From: Glycera tridactyla
Lineage: Eukaryota
Assembly (NCBI GenBank): GCA_965644265.1
Contig: OZ286464.1
Coordinates: forward strand, 13,268,001 to 13,332,000
Length of the DNA: 64,000 nucleotides
Reading direction: 5' to 3'
The position numbers and the translations under genes were made by a program. Below, one piece after another: positions 4,441 to 29,639 of the stretch. The stretch's first letter is position 1, and each line of letters starts with the position of its first letter. The notes beneath the pieces are model-generated. The model worked only from the letters and a program-made list of their open reading frames with translations. It ran no database searches and was not told the origin of the DNA.

Positions 4441-4455
4441 GTTGGTACATTCATC

Positions 4456-4890
4456 ATGGCAGAAGACAGTATCATAGTTTGGTGCAAAAAACTCTCATCA
4501 GCAGCTGTGCTCCCCTTGAAATGCAGTGATGGGGCTGCAGGTTATGATGTTTTCACTCCTCGTGATGTTATAGTTGAACCTAAACAGCAGAGACAGATCA
4601 AATCAGATCTGGCTTTTGGTGGCATACCCAGAGATACTTATGCATATATTATGGGTAGGTCTGGCTTATCTAAGAAAGGTTTGCTGTTGATGTCAAATGT
4701 AATAGATTCAGATTATAGGGGTAATATTACCCTGAATATCATCAATTTGGGACCAAAAGCTATTGAGCTTAAGCAAGGCACTCGCATTGCACAGATCATT
4801 TTCCATAGAGTTGCTCTCCCTAAAATTGCTGAATGTGACATCTTGGATTCTACCACAAGAGGGGTGGGAGGTTTTGGGTCAACTGGGTAA
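4456..4890 (+). CDS. dut: dUTPase (trimeric family)
   Basis: All five motifs present: AAGYDV, GRSGLS, VIDSDYRG, RIAQII, RGVGGFGSTG. Confidence 0.96.
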   Translation: MAEDSIIVWCKKLSSAAVLPLKCSDGAAGYDVFTPRDVIVEPKQQRQIKSDLAFGGIPRDTYAYIMGRSGLSKKGLLLMSNVIDSDYRGNITLNIINLGPKAIELKQGTRIAQIIFHRVALPKIAECDILDSTTRGVGGFGSTG

Positions 4891-5428
4891 AGAGGAGTGT
4901 CTGAATTGCTGATTCTTCCAAGACTGAAAAAGCAATACTGGTATCTTCTTAGGTAGAATGAATTGGTCTGGGTGGGGAACTTAGAATAGGGGCAGGGGCT
5001 GTGTGGATTGTGAGGCATGTGTCTACCCATAGAAGGTGACAATAGGGACAGAGGCTTGGTGGTTTGTGAAGCATATGCCTACCCATAGAAGACGATGCTG
5101 CTTTACACTGTTTATAGGACATATATAAGAGAACTGGGTAGGTAAATGGGAGCCACATTGCATACTGGTTCATCTGTTGCACATCTTACTATTGCTTGCG
5201 TGTCAGGGAATTGAAGAAAGTTCCATGCAACAACAATATAACCCACTTCTTACTGAAGGGACATCAACCAACCAATTGACCAACCTACCAACTCACCAGC
5301 CAAGCAACATCACTGCTGCCTCAGGACAAGAAGATACGAGATATTTCTACTAGGCTGGTGAGTTGAACTTGGTTTACTATATTGTGTTTTATTAATCATG
5401 CTTTGCTTTGCATGCATATTTGGATGTG

Positions 5429-6052
5429 ATGGTTGATAATGGTCCTAAATTGAATCAGACAATTTTGATGGTCGTGTTACCAGTGACAGAAGTTTTTGTG
5501 GAGAAAATTCATGCAGATTATCCTGTTATATCTTCATATCATAGAGGTGCTGTGACTATAAAAGATGGGACAAGGTCATGGCGAATATTCAGGAAAGGAT
5601 CAGTCAAAATTCATGTTTTAGCAGATGTGTACTCATTCATTTCGAATTTTTATGTGAAGTCTCATAATATTTTACATCTTCTTACTAAATATTCCATCTT
5701 CAAGAATCAGCTCAAACCGCAAATCATAATTTCAAGTAAGAATTTCCAGTTCACCTATAAGTTTATTCCATACAATGTTGAGAATTGTGTTCAATCTATT
5801 TCAGCAATAATCAATAATTCTGGATATAGGTATTTCATGTCTAGAAGTGATTTGGTATATTTATATACCGAGGTGTCATACTGTGAATTAGATGGAACAT
5901 TCAAAGCCAGAGAAATCAATACACGTTCAGTTTTCACTTTCAATCGGTCTGGTCATTTATGTGCTGTTCTCACAACATTAGATGATTATCAGATTTTGGT
6001 TGACATAATCCGTGCTGTTAATTGTTATAAGCAAGATGAGATTCAATGCTGA
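5429..6052 (+). CDS. Hypothetical protein, possible TBP-like two-repeat fold
   Basis: Open ~207 aa from the first ATG. Two segments, GAVTIK..WRIFRKGSVKI and RSVFTFNRSGHL..helix, are spaced like the two TBP repeats; SSKNFQFTYKF resembles KIQNMVGSCDV. Confidence 0.45.
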   Translation: MVDNGPKLNQTILMVVLPVTEVFVEKIHADYPVISSYHRGAVTIKDGTRSWRIFRKGSVKIHVLADVYSFISNFYVKSHNILHLLTKYSIFKNQLKPQIIISSKNFQFTYKFIPYNVENCVQSISAIINNSGYRYFMSRSDLVYLYTEVSYCELDGTFKAREINTRSVFTFNRSGHLCAVLTTLDDYQILVDIIRAVNCYKQDEIQC

Positions 6053-7556
6053 ATCATTTTTTTCAGCAGTTGTGGAAGTTTTGAAGTCTGAAGATGCATT
6101 GACTGTGGTATTTTGGGATGGGGTTGGGGACGATGTTAATCATGTTTGGAATCCACATAAAAATGCTGATAAAGTGAAACTCAGATCAGTGATGATTTTA
6201 CACTTGATGAAGAGAAGGGAATTTCGGGCTGACTGCAAAGAGGATTTGGAAAAGATGGTTACTAAGAAAGAGGCAAAAAGACAGTTCCTCAAACGGTTGT
6301 TACGTGAGCTAGGAAATTTGTTACGGGTTAATTTTGAACTTAGATTTGATCAAGTGGGAAGAAAACCTATACATGTGACCAAGGAACCATCTTTATGGTC
6401 TGTTAGCCTTTGTGTGAATGGAGATGGTCTCGTTCATGTTAATCAGAAATCTCTCACTGGAGGACATGATCCCATAACTTCTCTCCCAGATGGGAGAAAA
6501 AATATCACGACTGTGGTTTCTGATACTCTGACCACTATGCCATGTATAAAAAAATCTGGGACTGAAATGGATTATTTTAGTATGCCCAACTTGTATGATG
6601 ATACGTTACCTGATTTATTTCAAGGTGGTAGTGGTATGCCTGTCAACACTACTCCCACTTCAGATCATATAGGTATCAGTAGCTATAGCATTATTTCTTC
6701 CACTGCAATGTCAACAATAGATCGAGGTGGCGGTGATGCGAATGTTACCACTACTGTCACTTCTGACCATTCAAGTATCAGTAGCTGTAGCATCATTTCC
6801 TCCACTGCAATCTCATCAATGGGAAGCACAGCAAAAACTTCCATATGTATTCCCAGAGATATGAATGCAAGGGAAGCAGTTGAACATGGAAATGTATGGA
6901 CCAATGTTCATCGAGAATTATCTCAACTTTCAGGTTTTGGTATGGGGAAAACTGTCACCTGCACAGTGACAGACACATTGAGTACTCCACGAATGAGTAC
7001 CAGTGAACTTTCATATTCATCTACTTCATCTCAACCAGAGATGAATTCATACCAACAAATGATGTATTTACCTCATATCCAAAATACCCACCCACAATTT
7101 TTCTGGCCATATAGACCCCCATTTATGCCATGGACGAGTGAATGGAGTGAAAACAGAGTGTGTATGGGTGTGGATCAAAAAAGTGTGAGCCAAGCAGATG
7201 TTGGAATGATAGCTGCAAGTGGAAGTGATGAAAGGATGCATGGCACCTTATTTACAGCTGGAGCAAATGGTAATACGGGGGAGGAGAATCAAGTTAAAAA
7301 CCAGACGAAAGGTCTGACTGAACAACCACAAGTTTCCCGGTCTGATTCTGCTCAGAGTACTGATGTTCAGGGTTTTTCAGATTCAGATCTGTCTTCAGAT
7401 GAAGAAAACACTATAAGTTCTGACCAGGCTTCAAAATTGTTGGAGTCACCAGTTGTTTTAGAAAAAAATTTAAGTCAAAATATGAAATTGCTCCAGGAAT
7501 TGGAACGTAGAAATCGAAAACGATCTTACAGTGAAGAACAGCTAGAGCAAATGTGA
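6036..7556 (+). CDS. Hypothetical ~506 aa protein with a globular N-terminus and Ser/Thr-rich low-complexity C-terminus
   Basis: Long intact ORF overlapping the previous stop. Internal repeat TSDHIGISSYSIISSTA / TSDHSSISSCSIISSTA; basic C-terminal RRNRKR. Confidence 0.75.
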   Translation: MRFNAESFFSAVVEVLKSEDALTVVFWDGVGDDVNHVWNPHKNADKVKLRSVMILHLMKRREFRADCKEDLEKMVTKKEAKRQFLKRLLRELGNLLRVNFELRFDQVGRKPIHVTKEPSLWSVSLCVNGDGLVHVNQKSLTGGHDPITSLPDGRKNITTVVSDTLTTMPCIKKSGTEMDYFSMPNLYDDTLPDLFQGGSGMPVNTTPTSDHIGISSYSIISSTAMSTIDRGGGDANVTTTVTSDHSSISSCSIISSTAISSMGSTAKTSICIPRDMNAREAVEHGNVWTNVHRELSQLSGFGMGKTVTCTVTDTLSTPRMSTSELSYSSTSSQPEMNSYQQMMYLPHIQNTHPQFFWPYRPPFMPWTSEWSENRVCMGVDQKSVSQADVGMIAASGSDERMHGTLFTAGANGNTGEENQVKNQTKGLTEQPQVSRSDSAQSTDVQGFSDSDLSSDEENTISSDQASKLLESPVVLEKNLSQNMKLLQELERRNRKRSYSEEQLEQM

Positions 7557-7561
7557 ATAGC

Positions 7562-7656
7562 TTCTGAGATTTTGGAGGCTGGCAGATGTTGGTTGGATAA
7601 AATTGCAAGTAACATTTTTGAACCTGCCCTTGAGTGTGAGTCTGCTTGTCGTGTTC
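7562..7656 (+). repeat. Intergenic ~95 bp repeat, copy 1
   Basis: TTCTGAGAT..GGCTGGCAGATGTTGGTTGGATAAAATTGCAAGTAACATTTT..CTGCCCTTGAGTGTG..TCTGCTTG..TGTTCA; a closely similar copy lies at 19846-19937. Confidence 0.85.
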
Positions 7657-7725
7657 ATTGTTTGAGAGCTGTCCATAGGGTTTCTCGCAAACCTAGAGGA
7701 AAGCCAACAAAGAGAAAGAGTCAAA

Positions 7726-8446
7726 ATGAGTGACTTAGCATTATTGTTCAAGCGCCAAAAAAATCACTTGTTGATGAGGCCTGAGTTATATGTCCCTAAT
7801 AAGATTGGAACATATGTTGGCTTAAGAGCTCTGTTTTTGCCTCCACTGACTACTCATTTTATAGGTTGAAAAAGGAGCTTATGTTGAGGTACAGCTTCAT
7901 GATACTGAAAAAGTGTTTCGGATCCGGTTTCCACGGTCTTATGTCAAAACATTTGTTGAGATAGAAGAAATAATCAATGATAAGTTAGAAAGGGATGGCA
8001 TTTCACAATATTTTCAGTTTTAATATAGTTTAAATAAAAATAGATTTAAAATCAAAATGAGTGCTGATGCAGGAGCATATATCAGAATTCCTTCAGGATT
8101 AGCAAAAGATTTAGGATTTAGATCATCAGTAACTGTTTCAGCAACTATTCAAGCACCTGCTGAGCCTGTGTTTCGTCGGGATGAAGCCTTGTTAAATACC
8201 ATATATATACGCTGCAACATATGTGAATATTCACAGGTGAATGAATTTTTTGATAGATATTTGGGCATTCTTTCAATTGATCCTTCCCACAGAAATACTT
8301 TCTACTTTGAGAACCCTGTTTATAAACAGATTGCTTCTGAACTTGATTGCATCACACATATAACCATTGATTTATTGGATGGGGAAGATATAGTAATCAT
8401 GGGTTGGGAAAATATTGATGCAGAATTGTCCGTTATTCAAATGTGA
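7726..8446 (+). pseudogene. Second minor capsid (penton) paralogue, disrupted
   Basis: ATG 7726, frameshift at ~7864, in-frame TAA at 8021. The C-terminal part LNTIYIRCNICEYSQV..LGI..ENPVYKQI..ITHITIDLLDG aligns with the penton at 25507 (HLYIYCDILEYSLV..LLAV..QHPNYIKV..IESITIIITD). Confidence 0.7.
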
Positions 8447-8900
8447 GAGATAGGGAGTTGAGCATTGTGTTATCAGGGAATGAGCCAAAAGATGATGAAC
8501 AGATCGCAAATCCATTTTGCCTTCAGAATGGACCCTCTAGTCTTCATTTATTTCACAGAGTTTCATCTTCCATTTGGGAACCATTCATTTTACATACATC
8601 TCGATATAGCCTACATACTGCTTACAGGATATGACACAAACAAACAACTNNNNNNNNNNNNNNNNNNNNNNNNNNNNNNNNNNNNNNNNNNNNNNNNNNN
8701 NNNNNNNNNNNNNNNNNNNNNNNNNNNNNNNNNNNNNNNNNNNNNNNNNNNNNNNNNNNNNNNNNNNNNNNNNNNNNNNNNNNNNACAACCATCATTCTT
8801 TTTTTTCCTTTGATAGTTTCTTGGATGGCTGGTTGATTTACTATTTCAGGGGGGGGGGATACTGGAGCTTGAATTAGTTCATAGAGGTCAATGCCTGCCA
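8443..8900 (+). pseudogene. Possible third small penton-like gene, frameshifted and interrupted by the gap
   Basis: Segments ELSIVLSGN, VFIYFTEFHLP and SFYIHLDIAYILLTG resemble penton motifs FYVFLPSN, EVALTSIIYP and LYIYCDILEYSLVG. Confidence 0.3.
8650..8785. other. Assembly gap (N run)
   Basis: Run of N bases. Confidence 1.
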
Positions 8901-9877
8901 CAGGTAGATGGGAGTGTTGTTGTTTGGGCTGGAGGAAACCTTACAGCATTGCATCAATACCCTTAGATACCAAGACAAGAATTCTGATCTGGCAATAGAC
9001 AGGTTTTTTTTTTGTTTTTTTTTCCATGCAACCAGTGACATTAGGGATTCACACATAGGCTAGCAAACTTTGATAACATGTTTTCTTTAGCTATGGCTTG
9101 GGAAATTACCCTGATTGGAACCAGACTTCAACATGGCATATACCTGCTATTCATGATCGGTGTTGGGTGTTGTGAAATTTACTTTGCCAAGTGATAAAAG
9201 GGGATTCATCAAGGACATTCTATACCATGGAATGATGAGATGAATTACAACCTTGACACAGAGAATTTCAGGTTGCTGTGAGGAGATGAAGAATGGAATT
9301 CCCTGTTGCGCAATTCAATGCCATCACTATCTGTTTCTTTCATTGTTACAATTCTTTGATAGATGTTTACATTTTCAAACTTTGAGACAAACGCGCGTGA
9401 GACAATGGTTCCTTATAAATGAAGGGTATTATTAGTGTATGCAAACCTGTGTGTACCTGGAAACGGATTAGTATAAATCATTCAGTACCTACTATGTTTT
9501 TGCCCAAAGTGAATATCCAAACACATTTGTCCTTTTCTTGTCAGTGAAATCTCTTTAATCTGCTTGTTGAAGAAATCCTGTAATTAATCCTTGGTTGACT
9601 TGAAATTATTTGACCAGGTAGTACAAGGTGGTGATGGTGTGAGTTCATGTTTGGCACTAACTGAGAGCACACACAGTATGTAAATCATGAAGAGGGGTCT
9701 TCTGGGAGATACAGCAGGAAGGTTCTTATGGCTACACTGTTATGATGATTGCCAGTTGGTTGGAGAGGGGTGTTATTTTTATCTACAGTCTGCTCCACTA
9801 CAGTTTGTACCTCCACTGGGGGTCTTTATTCGACCATTGCATGTGATATATATATATATTCTTCATTTTCAGTCAGG

Positions 9878-10110
9878 TGGCTCACCTGGATGAGTCAGTG
9901 GTAGCGCACTAGGCTGGCTTGCAATGGGTCTTGGGTTCAATCCTCAGTCATACCATGCAGGAATGTTTCACCCATCATCTTTGCTCTCCTCGGCTGGTAG
10001 TTTGATTAAGCATACTCAAGTGCAGAAAGTGGACCCAAAACACTATTTAAAACCCACTATTGAGAATATTCAGCAATTTTTGTATGTTGGTTTGCCTACA
10101 TATTTTTCCA
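9878..10110 (+). mobile_element. tRNA-derived SINE-like element
   Basis: Pol III A-box-like TGAGTCAGTGG (9891) and B-box GGTTCAATCC (9934), preceded by (TA)n. The 3' limit is approximate. Confidence 0.6.
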
Positions 10111-11555
10111 TATTCATCTGAACTTATCCAGATTAGTTTTTTTTTTTTCTCCTTCTCTATGCTAAAGTGAGTGTAGAGCATGTCAAACATTGAAGATATA
10201 TGCAGTTTAGGAAGCTGGGAAGGACCTTGTTCACAGTTTTGATCTTGGGTGTGATGGCATCTATAACTTGTAATTGATGGGTTGGATGCATTTCATGGTC
10301 AGTTTCAAATATCAAGACAAATTGCTGGGCACAGAAAGGTACTTTCTTTGAGTAGGAGGCATAATTCTACAAATCAATGGTCGTGGCCTCCCCCGAATGC
10401 ACCCAGACATGACCAGATTGAATTTGTCAACCTTGTCTGTGGTGAGATGAATGCATATCATGTGTAATAAAAGCAATCAGTTGAAATTGAGAGATGAGAT
10501 TTTGGGTAGCAAGACAACTATGTGGACTTTTCTGAAAACTGAAATCATTGTGAAAATGAGCCCCACCTATATAGAATTTTTTCACTTCAAGACCATCCTT
10601 GTCAACCATCTAAAAATGCTTTGAATCTACTCTGGACTGATTCCTCTGCCTTCCCTCATGTGCCCTGAGTGCATTCCATGTCAAATAAAGAGGTCTGAGA
10701 GAGATTCATATCCTAGAGAGGCGAGATTTTTGTCAAATGATGATCATCCACATAGGGCTGATACTGACTGCACCCTGAAATGCTTTAAAACAGCTTGGTA
10801 TTGCCCACAAGGGTCTGTCTCAATTCTGGCTGGTATGAGGAGTCTGTTAAGACATAGATACAGTGCATTGATGCATGCTTGTGAACATGTGGGAAAAATA
10901 TGTTTCATCATAAAGCTGATTTTCCAGGTCACTTATGTTGACTTGTACTGAAACAAATTGTACAAATGGACTTACTTTCACAATGGACATAGAGACCATC
11001 TATCCATACGTTGATGCCTGGTTTGATACACCTCGGTGCATTTCAAATGTTTGAAATGAGACATCACAGCTGCAAATTATGGCCATTTTTTTACCACAAT
11101 TCCCAGTTGTTGTTTTTTTTTTCTTTTTTTTTTCTTTTCATTTCCCAATCAGTAGATTGATTTGATGGTTTCTGATGTCATTCATCATGGAACCATTGTT
11201 TAGAGATACATTATCTATTTTCATGAACCTTGCTATTCCCCCCCCCTCCCCCTATTTCTTGTGGTCCCTTGGAAATTCTGCAAGGGAAACCACCGGAGTC
11301 TGGTACTCTGAGTTACACAAGGTACAACAATGAGTTTCATTCAGATATAAGTAGTGGCATCCAATCATGGGTACTTGCATTTATATTGACCCCCTCCCCC
11401 CATGAGTATTGCTGATGTTGAATGCAACTAACTAATAGAGCTCTGATACAATATGTCATCCAGGAGCAATTGGTGTGCACAAATCAGACTAGACTAGCAG
11501 GCAACCTATCTGAAATACTGATGTATTCCCAACTAGTATCCAATAAACTTCCACT

Positions 11556-12477
11556 CATGGTGAATCTATGGTAAGATATCCAAATCATAACAGAATAACA
11601 TCCCATCATTATTCTTCAGGTTGTTCTCCAGGGAATGTACTGTTCTCTTTTCTTGACGTTGGAAGTTAAAATGTAAGGTGCTAGCAGCTAATGGGGCTCA
11701 CAGCAATCTGTTGCCCTATACCCCTACCCAGGTGGCTGCTGCCACCTTGTGTTACCTTTTTTAACACTATGTGGCAGCAGGCACAGGAGCTCCATGGTTC
11801 ATGATGGGGGAATTCAGACACTAGATGGTAGCAACTATTGGAGGTTCATCATCATCTGAAGAGCTATACACCAAACCAGGGGCTGCTGCCCCCTGTGTTG
11901 ATTTTTTGTAGTGGTACTTCATCATTGTACACTATGTGGCAGCAGCCACTAGAACTACATGGAAATCTGCTGGTCTATACCCCAAATGACTGGTTACCGT
12001 CTCCATGTAGCAACAAACATGGTGAATCTATGGTAAGATATCCAAATCATAACAGAATAACATCCCATCATTATTCTTCAGGTTGTTCTCCAGGGAATGT
12101 ACTGTTCTCTTTTCTTGACGTTGGAAGTTAAAATGTAAGGTGCTAGCAGCTAATGGGGGCTCACAGCAATCTGTTGCCCTATACCCCTACCCAGAAGGCT
12201 GCTGCCACCTTGTGTTACCTTTTTAACACTATGTGGCAGCAGGCACAGGAGCTCCATGGTTCATGATGGGGGAATTCAGACACTAGATGGTAGCAACTAT
12301 TGGAGGTTCATCATCATCTGAAGAGCTATACACCAAACCAGGGGCTGCTGCCCCCCTGTGTTGATTTTTTGTAGTGGTACTTCATCATTGTACACTATGT
12401 GGCAGCAGCCACTAGAACTACATGGAAATCTGCTGGTCTATACCCCAAATGACTGGTTACTGTCTCCATGTAGCAAC
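11556..12477 (+). repeat. Near-identical tandem duplication, 462 bp unit
   Basis: CATGGTGAATCTATGGTAAGATATCC starts at 11556 and 12018; internal subrepeats such as ACACTATGTGGCAGCAG. Confidence 0.95.
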
Positions 12478-13155
12478 TGCTGGGATGAGACAGAATCATT
12501 GATACTATCCTATCCCAATTGTTGACTGGTTAACAGCTGCTATAATAAGCCATCTCTACGACCCAAATTTAGGCTAGACAGAGTGCTAAGCTGTGCTCAC
12601 CAGTAAGCTTGCTTACTGGTATGATGGTTTGGTTGATTGAGTGCATACATAATTGTATTATATCTATCTCAATAGCATGAGAACTGGATATACCTAGTTT
12701 GAAGCCATACTCTAGCCTGAGTCTTGCTGTTAGATTGTTTGTTCATCACCTGCTGGAATGGTTTGCAGATTTCACTTATGATTACCTCAGGTTTATTGTT
12801 ATCCCTTGAATTATAGTAATTTGACTGTTTTGGGTTACTGATTAGGCTGTACATATTATCTAATATCTAGTTAATCAGAATTGGTTGATTGGTTGCTGTC
12901 TCATGTTCTATGAGACTGCATGGGAGATATCACACAAGACTGATCCTTCTTGGTGCCAAATGAGAAACGTACAACACATCTGCTTCATGGGAATATCTGT
13001 CTGGGTGTCAGTTTGTGTGTGTTTTTCTGTGGTTGTGTGCACAAATTAGTTGGTTCTCTAAATGAAACTCACTGAGGTTTCTTGATCATAAGTTCTGGTA
13101 AGCTTTTGAAGAAAGTCTGTTAGAAATAGTGTGCAAAAATTCATGAAAGAGAGAA

Positions 13156-17242: not shown

Positions 17243-17260
17243 GTATGCATATGCCTCACA

Positions 17261-17494
17261 ATGTCTCAATATCTATTTTGTTATGATGTAGGATGTGATT
17301 GTTTATTACATTTTGTCTATAACGAGGGTATGTATGTTGTGTTGGAAAATGCTATAGGATATGCTTTGATTTTACCATTTGAGACAGCTAAATATATTTT
17401 AGCTGTAGATTTCTCAGAAATGACAGAATGGTGTCATTGGTATGAAAAATATAATGAAGTGGATTCTGATACAGATATTTTGGCAGAGAAATAA
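17261..17494 (+). CDS. Hypothetical 77 aa protein
   Basis: ATG-initiated ORF directly after the PC4-like gene on the same strand. Confidence 0.5.
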   Translation: MSQYLFCYDVGCDCLLHFVYNEGMYVVLENAIGYALILPFETAKYILAVDFSEMTEWCHWYEKYNEVDSDTDILAEK

Positions 17495-19060: not shown

Positions 19061-19207
19061 GTCACATGATAACATGTATGGGAACATGATAAATGTATAT
19101 TATTTACAAAATTGCTAAGTACAGCCTCATCTTACTTCTAATTGTACCTGAGATAGCAAAGGTCATTGGATAGCTTTACTGCATATTGAAATTTATTGAA
19201 ATTCATA

Positions 19208-19537
19208 ATGAATGTTGATAAGAATAACATATTTGAAAGTAGCAACTCTGAGACAGATGCTTCTGAAAGTGAAGCTGAGTCTGGCAAGAGGAAAACTCAA
19301 TATTTTCCACCTAAGCAGACAACTAAAGGTAAGGCTGAAGACTCAACCAAAAAATCTAAGAAGCGTAAACTAGATCGTGTCCAATTCGATTCTGAAGTTT
19401 CCGAAGTTTTGCAAAAAAAGAAGCGAAAGACTCAATCTCCTATCGATACCTTGCGACCTTTTTTAGAACTAAGTACACAGACAATAGCACAGTCAAGAGG
19501 TGCGAAAATAATAGCCTTGATACCAGTTTACAAGTAG
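19208..19537 (+). CDS. Hypothetical basic protein with NLS-like clusters
   Basis: KKSKKRK and KKKRK clusters with an acidic N-terminal patch. Confidence 0.55.
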   Translation: MNVDKNNIFESSNSETDASESEAESGKRKTQYFPPKQTTKGKAEDSTKKSKKRKLDRVQFDSEVSEVLQKKKRKTQSPIDTLRPFLELSTQTIAQSRGAKIIALIPVYK

Positions 19538-19845
19538 ATATAATCTATAAGACAAAATTTCCACCTGCTTTCCATAAGTGTCTCTACCTTTTGTCTCACA
19601 AGTCAGAGTTATTTGTTTTGATCAAAGATATTGTGAAAAAGAAAAAAATTTGTTATTCTTTATCTCAGTTCTTGCAGTTGTTGAGCTTAATGCCAATCAT
19701 TGTTGAGACAATGAAAGCTATCCTGTTGCTTGTGAAGAATCCCCCTCTTAGACTGAAGTCAAATATATCCTATTCAGATAGTGACAGCGATATTTGAAGA
19801 CTGTTATGTATATGTCTTCATCCTTTCATTTATGCTGAACAGATA

Positions 19846-19937
19846 TTCTGAGATGTTGCTGGCTGGTAGATGTTGATTGGATAAAATTGCAAGTAACATT
19901 TTGGAGGCTGCCCTTGAGTGTGTCTGCTTGCATGTTC
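19846..19937 (+). repeat. Intergenic ~95 bp repeat, copy 2
   Basis: Matches 7562-7656. Confidence 0.85.
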
Positions 19938-20061
19938 ACAGGTCAGTTGTAGTCACCACTTGTTTTAGGGAAAAATTTGAAAGTTCATAATATGAACCTG
20001 AACACCGTGTCATCCACTCATTATCAATGATAGATTTTGTTTCAGTCAATGAATTCTGAAG

Positions 20062-20958
20062 ATGCCTTCAAAGTTTTCCAGATCAAGGAGGAAATGTTCA
20101 CGAACCAAACTGAACCCAAATCCAGATGTAATATCTATCTCAGTTTGCAGCATGAGTAAATCGACTCAGACTGATTTCAATTTTGATTCATTTATCAATG
20201 AGATCATTAATCATGGTATTGGTTCTGATTTTTCTATTTTAGAAGTTTGTTCAGATATGTCTGCTTCTGAGTCAATTAGATCACCATGTGGCTCACCTTC
20301 ATCAACCTACCCTGAAGTCGGAGATGAGTCTCACCGAGATCTAAGTACACCACCTCTACCTTCTCAAGGTATGTCTGACATTTCCTTGCAGGAGGATACA
20401 AGAAAACGCTCACTATCTGAAAATTCAGATAGTGAGACTACAAAAAGACAAGCATTAGATTTGCAAGATCAAAACCTCATTCTTGAGCTGTATGATCCAT
20501 TAACAATGGCTTACAGCAAAAGATCCAGATTTATTGTTCAGGCGGCTGAAGACATGGAGCTGACATACCTTCGGGACATTCATATGAAGGAAGTAAAGGC
20601 TCTACAAACTACACGCTACTTAGCAAATCTTGGGGATAATACAGCCCCTGTACCATCAGACATCTCCTACAGCATGTTTCTGTATATGCTGTTCTATGGA
20701 TTTGGCGAGGAGGTTCGCCAAATACTTAAATCAGACCCATTAGCCTTCCATGAACTCTCTACTGAAGCAGTCATAAACAAAGTAATTCACAATAAATCTC
20801 ACGAGCAGAGATTCTATGAAGTTATGAACAAGTTTCTGCTCCCTATTGATAACTTTGAAAAGGAGCTTATCGAAAAGAGCTCATATTTTATGGTTAGGTC
20901 AGCCAACTTCAGATTGCTGGTACTAATAAAATATTATCATGCACACCTTGGGATGTGA
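20062..20958 (+). CDS. Hypothetical 298 aa protein
   Basis: Intact ORF; Ser-rich N-half and a predicted helical C-half. Confidence 0.7.
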   Translation: MPSKFSRSRRKCSRTKLNPNPDVISISVCSMSKSTQTDFNFDSFINEIINHGIGSDFSILEVCSDMSASESIRSPCGSPSSTYPEVGDESHRDLSTPPLPSQGMSDISLQEDTRKRSLSENSDSETTKRQALDLQDQNLILELYDPLTMAYSKRSRFIVQAAEDMELTYLRDIHMKEVKALQTTRYLANLGDNTAPVPSDISYSMFLYMLFYGFGEEVRQILKSDPLAFHELSTEAVINKVIHNKSHEQRFYEVMNKFLLPIDNFEKELIEKSSYFMVRSANFRLLVLIKYYHAHLGM

Positions 20959-21175
20959 GCTCACTGTCACACTAAATCTGTCTGAGAATCTTCTTCTCTA
21001 GTCTCTTTGATCTCAAGCGTGGTTCTCTCCAATGTGAGCCTTTCACCCTATGAAGGTGAGTTGCATGTAAATTGTATGGATTGATTTACTCTTTTATGTC
21101 AATACATTTGAGTTTCAATTCTGAATCTTCTTTTTCAAATTTGAATGCATAGCCGCTTGTGTTGTACCCTTTAGC

Positions 21176-21442
21176 ATGCCATTTTGTATTTGGTGTGGAC
21201 ATGATTGTGATGATTACTCTTTAGTTCCAGGTGAAGGGTTCTGTTGGATATGTTTTTACTTAAGTGAAAAAATTTGTTGCAGGTGCAGGCGACCATTCAA
21301 TAGTGTTAGGAAGTATTTTCCAGATAAAAGCAATAGATGTTTTGCATGTGAGCGCAAATATCGGAAAGAGATCAGAAAAGAGTACCATAAGAAAGTAAAC
21401 ATCAGCAAGAGCGCACACAAAAAGAGTAGATCATGTCATTAA
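21176..21442 (+). CDS. Small Cys-rich putative Zn-binding protein
   Basis: Four CxxC motifs (CIWC, CWIC, CCRC, CFAC) and a basic tail. Confidence 0.7.
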   Translation: MPFCIWCGHDCDDYSLVPGEGFCWICFYLSEKICCRCRRPFNSVRKYFPDKSNRCFACERKYRKEIRKEYHKKVNISKSAHKKSRSCH

Positions 21443-21723
21443 CAACTTGTCTGAACACATTTTTTGGTTGGTGTTGCAAGGGAAGTGAAAGTATGGATCA
21501 TACAATTGAAAGTAAAATTCATACAGAAATTGAGTGTAAATGTTGTACAAACATTGTAATACGAAGTGATGATGATGATGATGGTGATGATGTTGACCAT
21601 GATGTTGACCATGAGCACAGCCACAATAAATGTGAAGATGCTCATGAGAAATTCAATGCAGGTACAGATCTTGAACATCCTGATGAAGGACTTTATGACA
21701 CTGGTGATGAACCCCATGCATGA
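21433..21723 (+). CDS. Small acidic, His-rich protein
   Basis: Overlaps the previous stop; WCC and CKCC motifs, poly-Asp and DHDVDHEH. Confidence 0.55.
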   Translation: MSLTTCLNTFFGWCCKGSESMDHTIESKIHTEIECKCCTNIVIRSDDDDDGDDVDHDVDHEHSHNKCEDAHEKFNAGTDLEHPDEGLYDTGDEPHA

Positions 21724-21814
21724 TGTCACTGATGTTAGAAAAAGGTGGCACACTTATGAAGTATATAATCTATAAATACTCAATGAGGATAAGATTTTCT
21801 TAGAAATTTCATAA

Positions 21815-22795
21815 ATGCCTGCGAAAATCCGAAGTAAGCGAGTGTTGTACAATATTTTGAGGTCGCTGTATACTGATCCCAAATATCCCTCTAGTTACAA
21901 CTCTCCTAGAAGATTAAAGAAACATCTGGATGATGAGAAGACTATTTCTATAACTTTGACAGAAGTTCAAGACTACTTGAGTAATTTACCCTCTTATACT
22001 CTGCATAGACCCATACGCCGTAAATTCAAGCGTCGTTTAACAAAAGTATATGGCATCCATATTCAACATCAGTGTGATTTGATGGATTTTCAGACACTTG
22101 CTAAGTACAACAACCACTTCAAATATGTTTTAATTGCAGTGGATGTATTTTCACGTTTCATGTTTGCTAGACCATTATTAAACAAAAAACCAGAGACTGT
22201 TGTCAGAGCTTTCCAACAGATGTATGAGAAAGGGGCAAAACCTAAAATAATACAGACTGATGATGGGTCTGAGTTTATTGCAAGGTATACTCAAAACTAT
22301 TTCAGGAGAGAATTCATCAAACATTTCACAACAAGCAGTGATACAAAGTCTGCTTTGGTGGAGAGAGCAATCAGAACATTGAAGGCAAGAATATTCAGGT
22401 ATTTCACACATAACAATACAAAAACTTGGTTCAATGTCTTGCATATTTTTGTTGATAGTTATAATAAATCTTATCACAGATCTATTAAAATGTCCCCAAG
22501 TGAAGTCAATAAGAGTAATGAAGGTGAAGTATGGGTGAATTCATACAATCAACTATTTTCAATCAAAAGGACTCAAAATTATTTTCATGAAGGAGATGTT
22601 GTGAGGATAACCCTATTGAGTAAACAGTTCAAAAAAGGATATATCAGAGGTTGGACAACAGAGATGTTTGTAATTGATGAGGTATTGAATACCTATCCAC
22701 TAACATATAAGTTGCGAGATATGAATTCAGAAGTATTAAAAGGAACTTTTTACAAAGAAGAATTATTAAAGGTGAGAAATATGATCATTGACTAG
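21815..22795 (+). CDS. int: Retroviral-like (rve, DDE) integrase of Maverick type
   Basis: QCDLMD, IQTDDGSEF, LVERAIRTLK; C-terminal GDVVRI..FKKGY..WT.E..KGTFYKEEL. Confidence 0.96.
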   Translation: MPAKIRSKRVLYNILRSLYTDPKYPSSYNSPRRLKKHLDDEKTISITLTEVQDYLSNLPSYTLHRPIRRKFKRRLTKVYGIHIQHQCDLMDFQTLAKYNNHFKYVLIAVDVFSRFMFARPLLNKKPETVVRAFQQMYEKGAKPKIIQTDDGSEFIARYTQNYFRREFIKHFTTSSDTKSALVERAIRTLKARIFRYFTHNNTKTWFNVLHIFVDSYNKSYHRSIKMSPSEVNKSNEGEVWVNSYNQLFSIKRTQNYFHEGDVVRITLLSKQFKKGYIRGWTTEMFVIDEVLNTYPLTYKLRDMNSEVLKGTFYKEELLKVRNMIID

Positions 22796-23317
22796 GAACT
22801 CATAGATCTATCTGTACCATTTGTCCCTCAAATTTTGTTTTCCCTGAACTGAAGTGTATATGTGTATGTATATCCATGTGTTTTGCATTTTCAGCTTACA
22901 AGAACCACACCATTGACAATTTGTTCATCGGATATACTATGTGGCGCTTATGCAATCAAGTTTATGCATGATTGCTATGCTTATGTGTGGTATGCTGCTT
23001 TTCAAACATGTGCATTTGATCCTAAAAAGCACTCCCTGGATTTTGATCTTGAATGCTTGCAAAAGCATCTGTGTCTCGGAATGTTGTGCTTTTTGCATGA
23101 TTATATGTGTTTATTCATGCTGAGTTATTCACATGCACTTATAATTTGCTGGTGGCATGTAAATCTGATTGTCTGCAAGAGTAAGTCATGTTCCTAGAGG
23201 TATGGGTGTATTGATCTGTGAGCTTGCAGTTTGCCTGTTAAAAGTTACATGTATCTTCATCAGATATGAGATTTAAGCTATTGATGGGAATTACAGGATT
23301 AGCTTCGTGTAAAAATT

Positions 23318-23975
23318 ATGAGTAGGCAAAAAGATTCAGAGAATTTGGAATATGCATTTGATGCCAGGTTCAAGACACCATTCAGATTACTGGTTGTTGG
23401 ACCTACTTTGTCTGGAAAGACAACATTTGTTTTGAATATGTTGAAAAATGTGGATAGACTTCTGGATGCACAAATAACCAACCTGGTATGGTGTTATGGG
23501 ATACAAATCCCCCCAGAATGTGAGACTAACACATTTTGTCCATGATATTCCCACCGATCTGGTTGAAACATATATTCAAAGTGGTGAAATAAATTTGCTT
23601 ATCCTTGACGATCTCATGGAAGAAGCTCTGAAGAGCAAATTATTTGCAGATATATTGACAAAATATAGCCACCATATGAATATTAGTGTTATTCTCATCA
23701 TGCAAGATTTTTATTATGATGGCAGATACCGGAAACTTATCCAAAGAAATGTTAATTATTTGACATTTTTTGACTCCCCACTTGACCAATCACAAATATA
23801 TGGAATGGCCAAGAAAATATCACCCAAAAGTGAGAAGGTATTCATTGAGATCTATAAAAAGGCTATAAAAGATCATGGATACATATTTATTGATGGTCAC
23901 AGAGATACACCTAAACAAGCAATGTTCAGATCTAATATTTTTGATTTAGGACAAAAAGTATATTGCTTATCATAA
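23318..23975 (+). pseudogene. DNA packaging ATPase (A32/FtsK-like), split by one frameshift
   Basis: Walker A GPTLSGKT in one frame; Walker B LLILDDL and SHHMNISVILIMQ in the next. The shift is at the C6 run, 23509-23514. Confidence 0.92.
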
Positions 23976-24109
23976 CATCTTAAATGAATTCACCTGACCT
24001 ATGGTCATTGATGTCTAGGTTGGAACATATCCAATGCATTTAGCATGACAAATACATGCAAATTGTCTCTGAGATTACTAATTCGTTATTTCATCATGAA
24101 TATTTGATA

Positions 24110-24667
24110 ATGGCAAGAACAATCCAAAAGAAGCAGAAATCCAGACCCAGGAAGCATAAATTTGAGGGAAAGAGAGTTCATGAGAAGCTTCGATCCTGAA
24201 GTCGTGAGACTCACAAAGCACAAGCTTGTAAAACAAAAAAATCAAGGACTAAATCTAGAAGTAATGATAGAGGAAAAAATTATGCTTCAACTACTGCATT
24301 ATCCCATGATCCAACACCAAAATGTACTGAGATTGTCAGGAATTTAGATTTCCTAAATTTCCTGACAAAAGCTAAGGGCAGAAAACGTTTGAAATCAGTT
24401 ATAAATATTGCAACTAAGAGTGAGTTAGAAGCAATTATACAAGTGTTGTCTAATGCCTGTCATGGTAGATTTCCACTTCCCAGTAGAGTTCTTCAGAAGC
24501 TTGTCAGACAAAAATCTACTTTACAACAACTTTTGAAACAGAGATTGAGTATAGGTAGGAGAAAAAAGATTATACAGAAGGGGGGTTTTATTGCAGCTTT
24601 ATCTGCCTTACTACCTCTAGCAATTAAAGGAATAACCGATTTGATAAAGAAAAGACAACGAAAATGA
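24110..24667 (+). pseudogene. Basic core protein with an adenovirus pX-like C-terminus, one in-frame stop
   Basis: ATG 24110 is in frame with the 24389 ORF; TGA at 24197; C-terminus IQKGGFIAALSALLPLAIK. Confidence 0.7.
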
Positions 24668-25329
24668 GTTTTAAAGAAGCTGTTATTGTACCATTATCTA
24701 TCTATAATAGGTATATTTCTAAGATGAAATTGGATGAGGATATACCAGACCAGAAGGTGAAGAAAGATACCTCACACCATGATGATCAAATCATTTCAGG
24801 CAAGATTAAACAATCAACATTGGATATATTAGAAGATACTAAAATGCCAACTGATATAAAGATGGTTCTGATACAAGATCAAAAGATAGAAGAAAAGCAG
24901 AGAGATAATGTGAAGGCAGCTCATTCAAGTGCTCAACAAACTATTTCAAGTGCTGAAATTCGGAAGTTACAAGTTGATAACATTGTTAGTTCTGTTATCC
25001 CTAGAAACCAACCATATGCCTTGAGTATTATGAATAAGATTCTTCAGAAACCAGAAGTACTAACCTGGGATACAAACAGTGGGGAGATTTATATTTATAG
25101 ACAGCTTGTGGAGGGTAGTAATATGAAAGATATAATTAGGTATCTTACAAAATCTTTGATTGTAACAAGTTCTCAAGATGTACCAGTTGGGCTGGTTGAA
25201 TTTGCTAAAGTATTGGATGATTTGAAGATTGATTCAAAATGGATACAAGCTAAAATACCAAGAAAGACTAGAGGACAAAAACAATATTCTGGTGAGCAAG
25301 TCTGGAGACATTTTGTTCATCTTTTATGA
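24664..25329 (+). CDS. Conserved Maverick structural-module protein of unknown function
   Basis: LTWDTNSGEIYI..GSNMKDII..PVGLVEF motif of Polinton capsid-cluster ORFs; start overlaps the previous stop (ATGA). Confidence 0.75.
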   Translation: MSFKEAVIVPLSIYNRYISKMKLDEDIPDQKVKKDTSHHDDQIISGKIKQSTLDILEDTKMPTDIKMVLIQDQKIEEKQRDNVKAAHSSAQQTISSAEIRKLQVDNIVSSVIPRNQPYALSIMNKILQKPEVLTWDTNSGEIYIYRQLVEGSNMKDIIRYLTKSLIVTSSQDVPVGLVEFAKVLDDLKIDSKWIQAKIPRKTRGQKQYSGEQVWRHFVHLL

Positions 25330-25506
25330 ATCTGTGAACTTTCATATAAATTTCGTGGTATAAGAGTTTGATTTTTGATATAACTTGACTCCATATGATG
25401 TGATGACCCAGTGGTAAAAGATGTATGTGAATACATCTTCATCATTGAGTTTGGGGATAGCATAACTTCAAGATTCAAGAGTATTCAAGCAATTGCACTG
25501 AGTTTG

Positions 25507-26346
25507 ATGAGAAATACAAATATGTTGGATGATAATTATAAAGGTAAAGATTTTTATGTTTTCTTGCCATCCAATGTTGACAGTGAAAAGTATGGAGTTA
25601 TCAACAAGATAGGACATTATACAACCTATATACCAAGAAACACCCTGAATCTTGGGGATAATAAATGGGAAGTTGCACTCACCTCGATTATTTACCCCAA
25701 AACAATGTATAATATAAATAATGAGATGTGTGAGATCATAAGAATAAAAAACAACCCCCCTACAGAATTACCAGATGGATCCCTAAGAGATAATACAAGT
25801 AGGGAAGTACGTAGAATATCGGCAGGCTTTTATAGGTCTGAAGGTGATTTGATCAGAGCAATACATAGTACTAGATCAAAGATTTTTGGGAGTAGTGTTG
25901 TTTACAATCCAATAAGTTATAAAGCAACAATCTACATGAAACCACTCGAATCAAAAACAGTGCAAGACAAATTATCAACTGTAATTGGGTTTCTGAACCA
26001 GACTGAGTTCATTGGTAGCAAGTCTGAAAAGGGAGCAATTAGAGAGTTTGTATCACCTCAAATGGTGAATATATACATCCCAGATCATTTATATATCTAT
26101 TGTGATATATTAGAATATTCTTTAGTAGGTGATAAACTTGCTCCTCTTCTTGCTGTATCTAAAATTGATTATTCGAATCCCCAAAATATCATTGAGAAAA
26201 CAATCCAGCATCCTAATTATATCAAAGTTCAAAATAACACCATTGAGTCCATCACAATTATCATAACTGATTCTTCAGGGAAACCAATTGAGTTTGAAAG
26301 TGGGAAGATTGTTATAACTTTACATTTCAAGCCTTGTATGCTGTGA
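25507..26346 (+). CDS. Minor capsid protein (penton, single jelly roll)
   Basis: DFYVFLPSN, WEVALTSIIYP, LYIYCDILEYSLVGD, PNYIKV..IESITI. Start at ATG 25507 or 25522. Confidence 0.9.
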   Translation: MRNTNMLDDNYKGKDFYVFLPSNVDSEKYGVINKIGHYTTYIPRNTLNLGDNKWEVALTSIIYPKTMYNINNEMCEIIRIKNNPPTELPDGSLRDNTSREVRRISAGFYRSEGDLIRAIHSTRSKIFGSSVVYNPISYKATIYMKPLESKTVQDKLSTVIGFLNQTEFIGSKSEKGAIREFVSPQMVNIYIPDHLYIYCDILEYSLVGDKLAPLLAVSKIDYSNPQNIIEKTIQHPNYIKVQNNTIESITIIITDSSGKPIEFESGKIVITLHFKPCML

Positions 26347-26348
26347 GA

Positions 26349-26816
26349 ATGAATAAGAATCCATACATCAATTATTACATGCAGCAGGGAGGAAATATCC
26401 CTGTTTTTGAAGGTACAATATCTCAAAGAGGTTATGGATTAGGGGGTATTCTAGCAAGCATTATTAGAAGTGCAGCACGAATTGCACTGAAAGCTTTCAA
26501 ACCAGTTTCGAGAGCTTTAACTTCTAAAGGTCTCACTTCAGCAGCAAGGGCTTTGGGGAAATCTACGATAAAGAAAGCTGCCAAATCAATTGGATCCAAG
26601 GGAATGAGACAGACAGGAAGGACGATCTTACAAAAAGGTCTTGAGATAGGTAAAGATGTAGGGAGAGATATCAGAAAAGAGGTCATCAAGTCTACTAAGA
26701 AAGCAGTCAAAAGAAAAATCACGGATTCACTTGAAGATATCTTCAAACCCACTGAAAAGAAAGCAAAACATCAAACAAGAGGCAGGAAAAGCAGGAGAAT
26801 TGTCAAAGGAAGATAA
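26349..26816 (+). CDS. Basic Maverick virion/core protein with a QRGxGxGG motif
   Basis: YINYYMQQGG.IPVFEG..QRGYGLGGILASIIR, followed by amphipathic K/R-rich helices. Confidence 0.85.
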   Translation: MNKNPYINYYMQQGGNIPVFEGTISQRGYGLGGILASIIRSAARIALKAFKPVSRALTSKGLTSAARALGKSTIKKAAKSIGSKGMRQTGRTILQKGLEIGKDVGRDIRKEVIKSTKKAVKRKITDSLEDIFKPTEKKAKHQTRGRKSRRIVKGR

Positions 26817-27176
26817 GTCAAATTGACTTTGCATTTGTGAGTGTATTACAGAGTTAGTCTTCTGAATGACTTCTTTTTGAATTGATTATGCTGCCCTGAG
26901 CAGACTGAACAGACTAATATCCATGATACATTTCTAGTGACAGTGTGCTGATTATTGTCTTTATTCTACTAATTGTATTCTACTAATTGTATTCCAATAA
27001 CAATCCACCACCTGAGTATTGTCTAGTTGCTTTTTTTTTTCTGATAGACCCATCCAATTGACACCTAGGACCTTGTGGATGAGATTTTCAGGAACTTTTG
27101 GTTCTTGCTCTATTCATATCACAGTCCTTTTATAACATTCTCTTTATTTTTGGTATCCAATAACAAACTATTCATC

Positions 27177-28523
27177 ATGAGTGGTTCAGATGTTGCTTGT
27201 TTGAAAAGTGAATTAGATTTATTCAAACAACAGAAGATTCAAGTAGCATTTAAGTCTGGGAAGTACATAAAAATAGATCCACAAACAAGTATTGATAGTA
27301 CAAATACATTGGAATTTAGACTTTCTACAGCTGGTCATTATTACCGGATAGGAGGAGCTGTTTTGTTTCTTGAGCTGAAAATTCTTGATGGGAATGATGA
27401 GGCTATAAATTTAACATCTTCCACAACTGCTGATTCCACAACTTATACTGGAGAACTTGTATATCCTGTAAACTATCTTGTTGCCTCTTGTTTCAAAGGG
27501 GTGGAAGTACAGATCAATTCAACTATTGTTAACAAAACAAACAATCTTTACCCCTATAGGGCATATTTAGAAGCCCTTTTGAGCTATAGTCCTGAAGCAT
27601 TCAATACTCATTTACGTGCAGGATTGTTTGTCAAAGATCAAGATAATTTTGATTATGTTGATAAAGACTTGTTCAATGATGAAGAGAAAAATAATGGAGC
27701 ATATGAGAGATGGCCTGCAGTGAAGGGCAGCAAATCCTTCCAAGTATTTGGTCGTATTCATTCAGAGATTTTTTCACAGGATAAAGCTTTGCCATCAGAC
27801 ACTGAAATTAGAATACGTCTTTATAAGCACAATCCTGAATTCTTCTTGATGTCTTCAAGCAAGAGCATAAAACCGAAGCTAGTTATAGAAGAGGCTGTTC
27901 TGTACATTCCACAGATGGATGTAGCACCATCTGTTGTTGAGGCCCACAAGTATGCGATCAGTAAGAATATTCCTATTGTCTATCCTGTGACAGGAGTTGA
28001 AGTTGTCCATTTCACACATGCTGTTGGCAAATCAGACCTATCCGAGCCCACAGTGTTTCAAGGAAAATTGCCAAATAGTGTAGTCAAAACACTTGTTTCG
28101 AGTGCAGCTTTTAATGGAGATTACAGTAAGAACCCATTTTCGTTTCAACACAATAATGTCAGGAGCATCTCATTACGAGTTGATGGAATTGCCAAGCCAA
28201 TAGATGAATTGAGAATGAAATATGATGAAGAAAAGTATATGATGGCATATTTATCACTTTTAGAGGCATGCGATTCCCTATTTTCAAATACACCAGTGAA
28301 TATTTCACCATATGAGTTTGCATCAGGTTACGCTATATATGCATTTGATTTGACTGCAGATTTGAATGCTTGTGCTCCACACCGATCCCCTAATCAGGTC
28401 GGAAAGATTGGCGTTGATATCAGATTGGATAAATCTACAACAGAGAGTCTAGTGGTATTAGCATATGCCGAATATTCGTCAGCTATATATCTGAAAGGGA
28501 ATGAATGTGAATATACTTTATAA
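27177..28523 (+). CDS. Major capsid protein (double jelly roll)
   Basis: CLKSELDLF..Q N-terminus, YPYRAYLEALLSY, KNPFSF, YAFDLT; ATG at 27177, 448 aa. Confidence 0.92.
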   Translation: MSGSDVACLKSELDLFKQQKIQVAFKSGKYIKIDPQTSIDSTNTLEFRLSTAGHYYRIGGAVLFLELKILDGNDEAINLTSSTTADSTTYTGELVYPVNYLVASCFKGVEVQINSTIVNKTNNLYPYRAYLEALLSYSPEAFNTHLRAGLFVKDQDNFDYVDKDLFNDEEKNNGAYERWPAVKGSKSFQVFGRIHSEIFSQDKALPSDTEIRIRLYKHNPEFFLMSSSKSIKPKLVIEEAVLYIPQMDVAPSVVEAHKYAISKNIPIVYPVTGVEVVHFTHAVGKSDLSEPTVFQGKLPNSVVKTLVSSAAFNGDYSKNPFSFQHNNVRSISLRVDGIAKPIDELRMKYDEEKYMMAYLSLLEACDSLFSNTPVNISPYEFASGYAIYAFDLTADLNACAPHRSPNQVGKIGVDIRLDKSTTESLVVLAYAEYSSAIYLKGNECEYTL

Positions 28524-28542
28524 TTGAGAATAAGAATATAAA

Positions 28543-29022
28543 ATGAATACTGAAGACCTAAAGTACTTCATAGGTAAGGTCACTCACCCAGATTATTTTC
28601 AGGGGGTCTTTTCCTCAGATTCTCTACCACGAAAAAAAGAAAATGGTATATATATCTGCAATACTGCCAATGCATTCAATAAGGGCATCCATTGGATTGG
28701 ACTCTTTGTGCATGAACAGAAGCATAATGAGTATTTTGATAGTTTGAATGGGCCAATATCATATGAATTTGAAGAATTTCTCAATTTCGAATATGAACGT
28801 AGCACAAGAGCTTTGCAATTTCCTTTGTCAACTACATGCGGTGGTTGGGTATTATATTATTCAATTGCTAAGTCATTGGGATATAAGCTATCTGAGATTG
28901 AGCAAGATTTCACTCATGATACACTGCTGAATGACTACCTTCTCCGGTGGTTCCTTCACAACTTCTTTGGACAGGAGATATTACATGTGTTTGATCTTGA
29001 CTTCATTGAGTCGGTATTTTGA
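28543..29022 (+). CDS. Adenain-like cysteine protease
   Basis: Catalytic residues in GIHW, EYFDS and LQ..STTCG. Confidence 0.95.
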   Translation: MNTEDLKYFIGKVTHPDYFQGVFSSDSLPRKKENGIYICNTANAFNKGIHWIGLFVHEQKHNEYFDSLNGPISYEFEEFLNFEYERSTRALQFPLSTTCGGWVLYYSIAKSLGYKLSEIEQDFTHDTLLNDYLLRWFLHNFFGQEILHVFDLDFIESVF

Positions 29023-29047
29023 CTTCATCGTCTGTATGTCAAACACA

Positions 29048-29560
29048 ATGCCTAAACGATCAATCACTTTCCACAGATCAGCTACTCTGAAAGACGTTGA
29101 GGATGGTCAAATCATAGATGTTCGTGATGAAGAAAAGATAGATGATCCACTGACCATTCATGTGTCTGAAGATATTGAATCAATTATTTTATACTTAGGC
29201 TTCATGAAATTAAGGGTGGATTTTGTTCAGCGCTCCATACAGAAATTTGGGAGTTATATTTCATATGCAGATTTCAAACCTCGAACAATATATGATATGC
29301 AAACATTTCCATGTATTGAATCAGATACTAGTGACTGTGAACTTCTTATTGATCCAACATATGATATAGTCAATTTGAGACATGGACAAACATATTTGCG
29401 ATTCCGTTGTAATAACTTGGAAATGGAATGTGTGTCATTAGCATATGATGACGAACAGACACGGGTGAAAAGTCTTGTTAGTATGATAAGTGAGCAGCTG
29501 AAACCTACTGCACACGTTCAGCCCAGTGTTAAGAGGAACAGTGATTCTGAAGTTGATTAG
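29048..29560 (+). CDS. Hypothetical ~170 aa protein
   Basis: Intact ORF right after the protease on the same strand; last ORF before the satellite. Confidence 0.6.
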   Translation: MPKRSITFHRSATLKDVEDGQIIDVRDEEKIDDPLTIHVSEDIESIILYLGFMKLRVDFVQRSIQKFGSYISYADFKPRTIYDMQTFPCIESDTSDCELLIDPTYDIVNLRHGQTYLRFRCNNLEMECVSLAYDDEQTRVKSLVSMISEQLKPTAHVQPSVKRNSDSEVD

Positions 29561-29639
29561 AGTTGTTGTTCTAAAAGATGTCAGTCGGTAATGCAATATA
29601 AGAACAATTGGTCACTGCTTACTACAATGAGTATCCAGC

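Follow-up and report, generated by a model that had tools for sequence, protein, structure and literature searches.

Adenoviruses and large DNA viruses have been proposed to descend from Mavericks, whose mode of replication has, to our knowledge, not been shown. Animal Mavericks or Polintons (Polintoviricetes, 'adintoviruses') are characterized by pPolB, an rve integrase, an ATPase, capsid proteins, a protease, a 6-bp target-site duplication (TSD) and AGT-repeat ends according to the accessible text of PMC8097293, in which 134 intact vertebrate Mavericks are given sizes of 12.7-24.6 kb and terminal inverted repeats (TIRs) of 46-1,447 bp. The available part of a review (PMC6431247) puts sizes at 15-25 kb, the largest representatives reaching 40 kb, and that of 10.1101/2023.08.22.554363 gives a TIR range of 100-1,500 bp for Polintons. 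The 64,000-nucleotide stretch analyzed here (the window; Glycera tridactyla contig OZ286464.1, positions 13,268,001 to 13,332,000, or G000:C13:13268001-13332000 in the searched genome assembly of 2.04 Gb and 207 contigs) carries an element, assigned to a family A, that resembles these Mavericks in gene set, TSD and AGT-repeat ends. Family A differs in being 35 kb long, has all genes on one strand and a terminal repeat of 8 bp, and encodes both a deoxynucleoside kinase (dNK) and a dUTPase. Overall, we consider it probable, at roughly 70%, that this is a recently mobile 35-kb Maverick of a distinct one-strand dNK/dUTPase clade, likely copied from two independent ends. The element, its arms, its two nucleotide-supply genes and its core genes are as follows.

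1..34827 of the window plus 195 bp further left (start G000:C13:13267805), + strand: Maverick element, family A, with TSD GCTAAT on each side
1..4455, no strand: left non-coding arm, containing direct repeats of degenerate type plus pieces of host-like, high-copy repeats
4456..4890, + strand: dUTPase, 144 aa (Pfam PF00692, E 8.6e-33; PDB match; five motifs)
13156..16698, + strand: pPolB, from motifs and homology to the family C protein
18380..19060, + strand: deoxynucleoside kinase, 226 aa (PF01712, E 5.6e-23; P-loop, catalytic Glu, ERS and lid motifs)
21815..22795, + strand: retroviral-type integrase, 326 aa (PF00665, E 1e-11; DDE motifs), without C-terminal chromodomain
23318..23975, + strand: A32-like packaging ATPase (Pfam), in two pieces, frameshifted in the window copy
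24200-24667 and 24664-25329, + strand: two conserved morphogenesis-module open reading frames (ORFs) with matches in other Maverick families
25507-26346, + strand: minor capsid protein (mCP), named from gene order
26349-26816, + strand: basic core-like protein, named from gene order
27177..28523, + strand: major capsid protein (MCP), 448 aa, from homologs and gene order
28543..29022, + strand: adenain-like cysteine protease (PF00770, E 0.0015, below cut-off; His/Asp/Gln-Cys motifs)
29561..34827, no strand: right non-coding arm, with nested direct repeats, ending in a hairpin and the 8-bp terminal repeat

Each core gene tested places the element among Mavericks: polymerase, rve integrase, A32-like ATPase, protease, MCP and minor capsid genes are all present, and so are AGT-repeat termini and a 6-bp TSD, whereas two stated features of the group, long TIRs and an integrase chromodomain, are lacking. 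The chromodomain, called distinctive of adintoviruses in PMC11071296, is absent from the integrases of 4/4 clade members and present in 4/4 from other families. The window pPolB has no PF03175 match of its own in a Pfam search; it carries the motifs expected of a pPolB and shares 34% identity over 1143 aa with the family C protein, which matches PF03175 at 3.6e-19. It contains an Endonuclease VII/HNH-like insert, and the comparison with adintovirus features picked out candidate motifs around Cys and His, residues 169 and 260, which have no Pfam match. Polymerase-region ORFs of 1,687-1,761 aa in two other Mavericks (L145 and L143, families F and D) match this pPolB weakly. The names mCP and core-like protein, based on gene order, are presumed. 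Identification of the MCP draws on gene order and homologs, with 97 genome matches (94 of 567 candidates scored) and 246 homologs in the protein database.

A first-pass annotation of the window had described a co-oriented ORF cluster at 4456-29560 with pPolB in the middle, about 13 accessory ORFs, and an intact dUTPase and dNK, all of which was borne out. In this interval, 17 ATG-initiated ORFs of at least 100 aa lie on the + strand and one on the - strand, compared to 0.32 per strand in 50 shuffles, and pPolB is located near the middle of the element. Non-core ORFs amount to 12, or 13 with a doubtful 77-aa ORF (one short ORF running through an N stretch is left out); homologs of 10 of the 12 exist in family B. 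Both predicted nucleotide-supply enzymes are whole ORFs in the window copy. The dUTPase contains all five conserved motifs of homotrimeric dUTPases, and the kinase has the P-loop, catalytic Glu, ERS and lid arginines of the dCK/dGK/TK2 family.

The family A element totals 35,023 bp and ends on the right at window position 34,827, which is also where the match to the window stops in 6/6 other copies. These six siblings, picked at 98-99% MCP identity and then aligned to the window, are 98-99.7% identical, giving at least seven copies in the genome. Both ends could be located in six copies, the window copy among them, and five of these have matched 6-bp TSDs (GCTAAT in the window; AGCATT, TATATG, CATATA and CAGAGG elsewhere; five contigs); copy C26, whose left end falls in an assembly gap, is not part of this count. 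Over the segment equivalent to 13156-29560, C26 and C42a, located on different chromosomes, show 0 differences in 16,399 bases, and C4 differs at 7 bases; the differences number 56-69 for the window copy and 264-297 for C42b. The first-pass annotation had also raised the case that the block at 4.4-8.9 kb belongs to a separate element; this fails, as the dUTPase block lies inside the TSD-bounded unit in 5/6 siblings (C32 has an assembly gap there) and hence belongs to the element. Replication, integration and capsid genes are open in most siblings. The insertion in the window is itself decaying: a frameshift near 23.5 kb splits its ATPase, where 5/6 siblings have a whole 227-aa ORF, and its in-frame stops at 7554, 7867 and 8021 are all open in 5/5 testable siblings. 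In copy C40, the MCP is interrupted by a ~29-kb insertion (G000:C40:19425715-19454542), the ends of which match a repeat also present 11-16 kb left of the window. At G000:C17:27.94-27.95 Mb (L183, L184) resides a relative of family A that is older and degraded (~60-95% protein identity).

Left and right ends of family A have only the 8 bp AGTAGTAG in common, followed by a loosely spaced TATCAC motif, and no similarity of the left end, left arm or internal spacer to the right arm was detected by blastn at word size 7. Near the right terminus, a hairpin with a stem of ~20 bp lies 13 nt inward from the end. Exactly six left-end and six right-end motifs occur genome-wide. Copy C42b, ~1.6% diverged from the youngest family A copies, carries both differing ends seen in the others; next to the near-identical copies, its divergence gives at least two waves with identical asymmetric ends. 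Compared to TIRs of 46-1,500 bp in published ranges, and of 160-170 bp and 1,185 bp in the sister families B and C, respectively, family A is thus a derived variant rather than a typical member. PMC3014272, considered as a candidate report of short or missing TIRs in Mavericks, proved not relevant in its accessible part. Since the terminal repeats match for 8 bp only, replication from two independent ends is likely. Bacillus phage phi29 copies its linear genome by protein priming at both ends with a 6-nt inverted terminal repeat (PMC4974454, text available in part), so that a long repeat is dispensable in principle; phi29, an unrelated virus without integrase, offers a mechanistic analogy only.

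Searches with dUTPase and dNK identified families B and C in the same genome, again with all genes on one strand. Family B (MCP 49% and pPolB 52% identical to the window) measures 33.8 and 36.2 kb between TIRs of 160-170 bp, shares the gene order of the window and has two dUTPase paralogs; its pPolB holds a stop in both copies examined. Family C (MCP 35% identical) is 34.9 kb long with 1,185-bp TIRs, and its dUTPase adjoins the dNK after pPolB. From metagenomes, 80 loci were kept (91 of 93 confirmed), most of which, besides L062 and L063, are too short to test; these two have the dNK between pPolB and integrase, and L063 adds a dUTPase and two degenerate paralogs. Wherever a clade member extends upstream of its integrase, the dNK is present (5/5), its position between pPolB and integrase holding across the clade, and the dUTPase occurs in 4/4 testable members. 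Seven of seven other Maverick families sampled over 20-30 kb have neither gene. The MCP tree comprises 75 rows (46 of 120 listed database matches, 16 of 80 metagenome loci and 13 elements of the G. tridactyla genome) and resolves a distinct 37-row clade with SH-aLRT 100 and a stem of 0.57, consisting of A, B, C, L061-L064, L066, L085, P0001-P0027 and P0103. In the integrase tree (22 rows), A, B, C and L061-L063 group together with support 91. These sequence comparisons support the view that dNK and dUTPase mark a distinct Maverick lineage.

Catalytic motifs of both enzymes survive at 30-40% identity. Genome-wide, 30/34 dUTPase and 23/30 dNK family matches lie at most 40 kb from a clade-type MCP match; the remainder are adjacent dUTPase-dNK pairs (the one checked is family C) or two short exon-like pieces. 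All five element kinases fall within one 18-row group (support 97) of the 43-row, midpoint-rooted dNK tree, which excludes the sole named cellular sequence, a crab TK2-like protein. Families A and B join P0192/P0194 in this tree (support 96) and P0001-P0003 in the MCP tree; a dNK and an MCP from these two clusters are each listed on a 23,051-base NCBI contig, probably one and the same. As the dNK tree mirrors the MCP tree, the kinase appears to be old in the clade; the dNK tree and the genome-wide matches did not place the donors of dNK and dUTPase. Tandem decayed dNK copies, 49-71% identical to the window dNK, lie ~2.66 kb apart near a family C element (G000:C51:78700604-78721460). Degenerate dUTPase paralogs without catalytic motifs are found at L044:5386-5853 (family B), L063:11885-12517 and L063:13385-13972 and recall adenovirus E4-ORF1.

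Regarding described systems, no dNK plus dUTPase set in Mavericks was reported in the full text searched, a scope that stops short of subscription papers, supplements and Repbase. The accessible portions of PMC8097293, 10.1101/2023.08.22.554363, PMC11131425 and two 2026 preprints name neither dUTPase nor nucleoside kinase for Mavericks, except for a single mention of 'kinase' in 10.64898/2026.06.19.733378, and the part of PMC8502044 available confines dUTPase to a legend on MELD viruses, whose replicases are others. An Endonuclease VII/HNH-like pPolB insert, which may be orthologous, also occurs in the pPolB2-type Polintons of nematodes and oomycetes (Jeong et al., 10.1101/2023.08.22.554363); these elements are TIR-defined, and the text at hand does not mention dUTPase or kinase. 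TK-like (Tkoid) and dUTPase-like (Utoid) genes are known from bidna-class viruses (PMC11071296) and a dUTPase from fowl adenoviruses (aviadenoviruses; PMC8961515). These pPolB-bearing relatives resemble the clade in having genes for dUTPase and for a protein like thymidine kinase, and adenovirus E4-ORF1 is a degenerate dUTPase paralog comparable to those of family B and L063, but they have no integrase and are not endogenous transposons, and bidnaviruses use a parvovirus capsid. Hence, the idea that the gene set is not standard in a described Polinton clade agrees with the literature searched. Other parts of the initial proposal stand only in part: at 35,023 bp the element extends beyond the cluster first described, yet is within the published upper size of 40 kb (PMC6431247, as far as accessible), and its one-strand layout is real, yet same-strand modules have already been published for Xenopus tropicalis (PMC8097293, in the text available).

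Besides the genes listed above, the element contains the following accessory ORFs and spacer.

5429..6052, + strand: 207-aa ORF, candidate TBP fold, with a 34% identical family B homolog
6036..7556, + strand: ORF of no assigned function, truncated by a stop in the window copy and 565 aa long in a sibling; family B conserves both termini
7726..8446, + strand: second minor-capsid (penton)-like gene with two in-frame stops; ORF 8057-8446 is its C-terminal half
8847..13155, no strand: internal non-coding region common to siblings; it includes a tandem duplication of 462 bp and a dispersed host repeat of ~150 bp
16964..17242, + strand: PC4-like small protein, predicted to bind single-stranded DNA (family B homolog PF02229, E 0.0033, below cut-off)
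19208..19797, + strand: 109-aa charged ORF, its stop overlapped by an ATG-less second PC4-like frame
20062..20958, + strand: 298-aa ORF of no assigned function, only in family A and a degraded relative
21176-21442, + strand: Cys-rich zinc-finger-like ORF, conserved across the clade
21433-21723, + strand: 96-aa acidic ORF
29048..29560, + strand: 170-aa ORF of no assigned function, with two paralogs in family B and no usable Atlas match

The predicted model of the ORF at 5429 (pLDDT 49) contains two similar beta-alpha repeats, and in Foldseek the 28 rows shown from ranks 1-30 are TBP entries or complexes (best rows E 0.01-0.1, TM 0.28; none at E 0.001), one being titled merely 'double stranded DNA binding protein'. 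The ORF has no Pfam match, it does not clearly outscore shuffled sequences when profiles are compared with TBP-like genes from other elements, and one of its five database matches, an ankyrin-repeat protein, was dropped; on balance, we lean slightly towards a TBP fold, with weak support. Clear TBP genes are located between ATPase and integrase in 4/4 other Maverick loci sampled outside the dNK clade, and TBP is named in figure legends of an adintovirus preprint (text seen in part), so that a TBP gene alone is not novel. At least 150 PF00352 (TBP) matches occur genome-wide, nearly all intronless and in high-copy families (e.g., L162:1219-1851, L169, L172, L175). The second penton-like gene matches the clade mCP in hhalign with 91% probability (E 1.1e-6), and the PC4-like gene follows pPolB in 5/5 clade members with that region. 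The ATG-less frame at 19.4-19.8 kb resembles the PC4-like protein (hhalign 94%), its overlap being conserved in family B. At this overlap, window 19527-19539 and family B locus L043 share an identical 13-nt stretch, which suggests recoding or splicing, although no canonical slippery site was identified there. In family C, two related ~310-aa ORFs without Pfam match flank the core (L057:5155-6069 and L058:7402-8343). Outside the element, the window contains a long interspersed nuclear element (LINE) ORF2 with endonuclease and reverse transcriptase (39435-43621, - strand; internal 970-bp tandem duplication), an L1/L2-type ORF1-like coiled-coil ORF (47081-48085, - strand) and, read by eye, broken gag-like coiled-coil/zinc-knuckle frames (37500-39352 and 49053-50158, + strand) interrupted by the LINE. 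The remnants of LINEs, the microsatellites and the genome size suggest an animal source.

In the mechanism that we propose, the integrase would recognize AGTAGTAG plus the TATC-type end motif and excise or insert the element. By analogy to phi29, pPolB would prime at each end separately on the AGT repeats and displace a strand, to be coated by the PC4-like protein. The dUTPase likely lowers dUTP and the dNK likely raises the dNTP supply for the element's own copying, which may permit copying in cells outside S phase, and the capsid module would finally package the linear DNA. This virion step overlaps with a rival scheme, that of a germ-line transposon moving within the nucleus, growing by capture of host DNA and forming particles rarely or not at all, in which the two enzymes would serve copying in germ cells. 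Such a transposon is a real contender, albeit not the one we favor: ~55% of the element is non-coding with host-like repeats, none of 83 pattern matches in 2.9 million viral contigs was confirmed as a relative, and the literature reports no Maverick virions (10.64898/2026.06.19.733378, accessible part). It accounts less well for the fact that families A, B, C and L063 have kept MCP, mCP, ATPase and protease, with identities of 30-60%, for the gain of a second penton-like gene, and for pooled pN/pS ratios of 0.28 for MCP and 0.10 for protease (few sites). Alternatively, family A might have lost its long repeats and be copied or inserted with help from families B or C or a co-infecting large virus, in which case its short ends would be uninformative on an autonomous replication mode. 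Long-repeat families B and C do reside in the same genome, and the ends of A and B both carry AGTAGTAG and the TATC motif at about equal spacing; still, we regard this as unlikely, given that pPolB and integrase of family A are open in 4/4 young siblings covering them, that a template with usable ends would still be needed, and that both examined family B copies have a stop in pPolB. Least of all do we expect that assembly artefacts, from collapsed or cross-polished repeats or chimeric ends, account for the apparent youth of the copies or for the asymmetry of their ends. Although C26 and C32 share 100-N gaps at one and the same place in the element and no difference separates three copies where they were compared, the matched TSDs, five different ones on as many contigs, the same two differing ends in the 1.6%-diverged C42b, and private mutations or insertions in the window copy, C40 and C42a speak against this.

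Several observations weigh against the reading of a recently mobile, two-end-replicating Maverick of a distinct clade. Since the sister families keep repeats of 160-1,185 bp, the short repeat is specific to family A and may reflect a defect that relatives help it to tolerate. No TSD matches between the two ends of C42b, and the zero differences between copies could partly be due to assembly polishing. Counts of synonymous/non-synonymous changes among siblings (dUTPase 2/1, dNK 5/4) are too few to speak on selection, and the MCP and dNK trees are quick trees without labelled reference Mavericks, that of the dNK being midpoint-rooted with long branches. The 20 counted ORFs comprise 15,648 nt, i.e., 45% of the element, and the arms and internal spacer contain degenerate repeats and host-like repeat fragments; as much of the extra length is non-coding and partly host-repeat-like, it renders the element less virus-like, not more. 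Its virus-like nature, read from its genes, is putative. Thus, the virus-like Polinton lineage with its own nucleotide supply envisaged at first holds as regards the distinct dNK/dUTPase clade and is weakened by low coding density and host-like repeats.

Tentatively, and with less confidence than in the reading given at the outset, these elements might form an undescribed large animal Maverick clade halfway to a mid-size DNA virus, combining a chromodomain-free integrase, one-strand layout, enzymes for its own nucleotide supply, an additional penton and a transcription factor of TBP fold, with one family that replicates and integrates without long terminal repeats. If true, the paired-end (panhandle) intermediate assumed for Polintons would be dispensable. 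The recent spread of a family with 8-bp end identity offers a direct test of the need for paired long ends. Surveys based on TIRs would miss such elements: TIRs of at least 100 bp were required in a coral survey and found in 22.8% of regions, and a nematode survey was filtered on TIRs (10.1101/2023.08.22.554363; both as far as their text was accessible), which leaves a blind spot for elements such as family A. Finally, a clade-wide, vertically inherited dNK/dUTPase pair would provide a living example of gene gain toward genomes that are larger and more self-sufficient.

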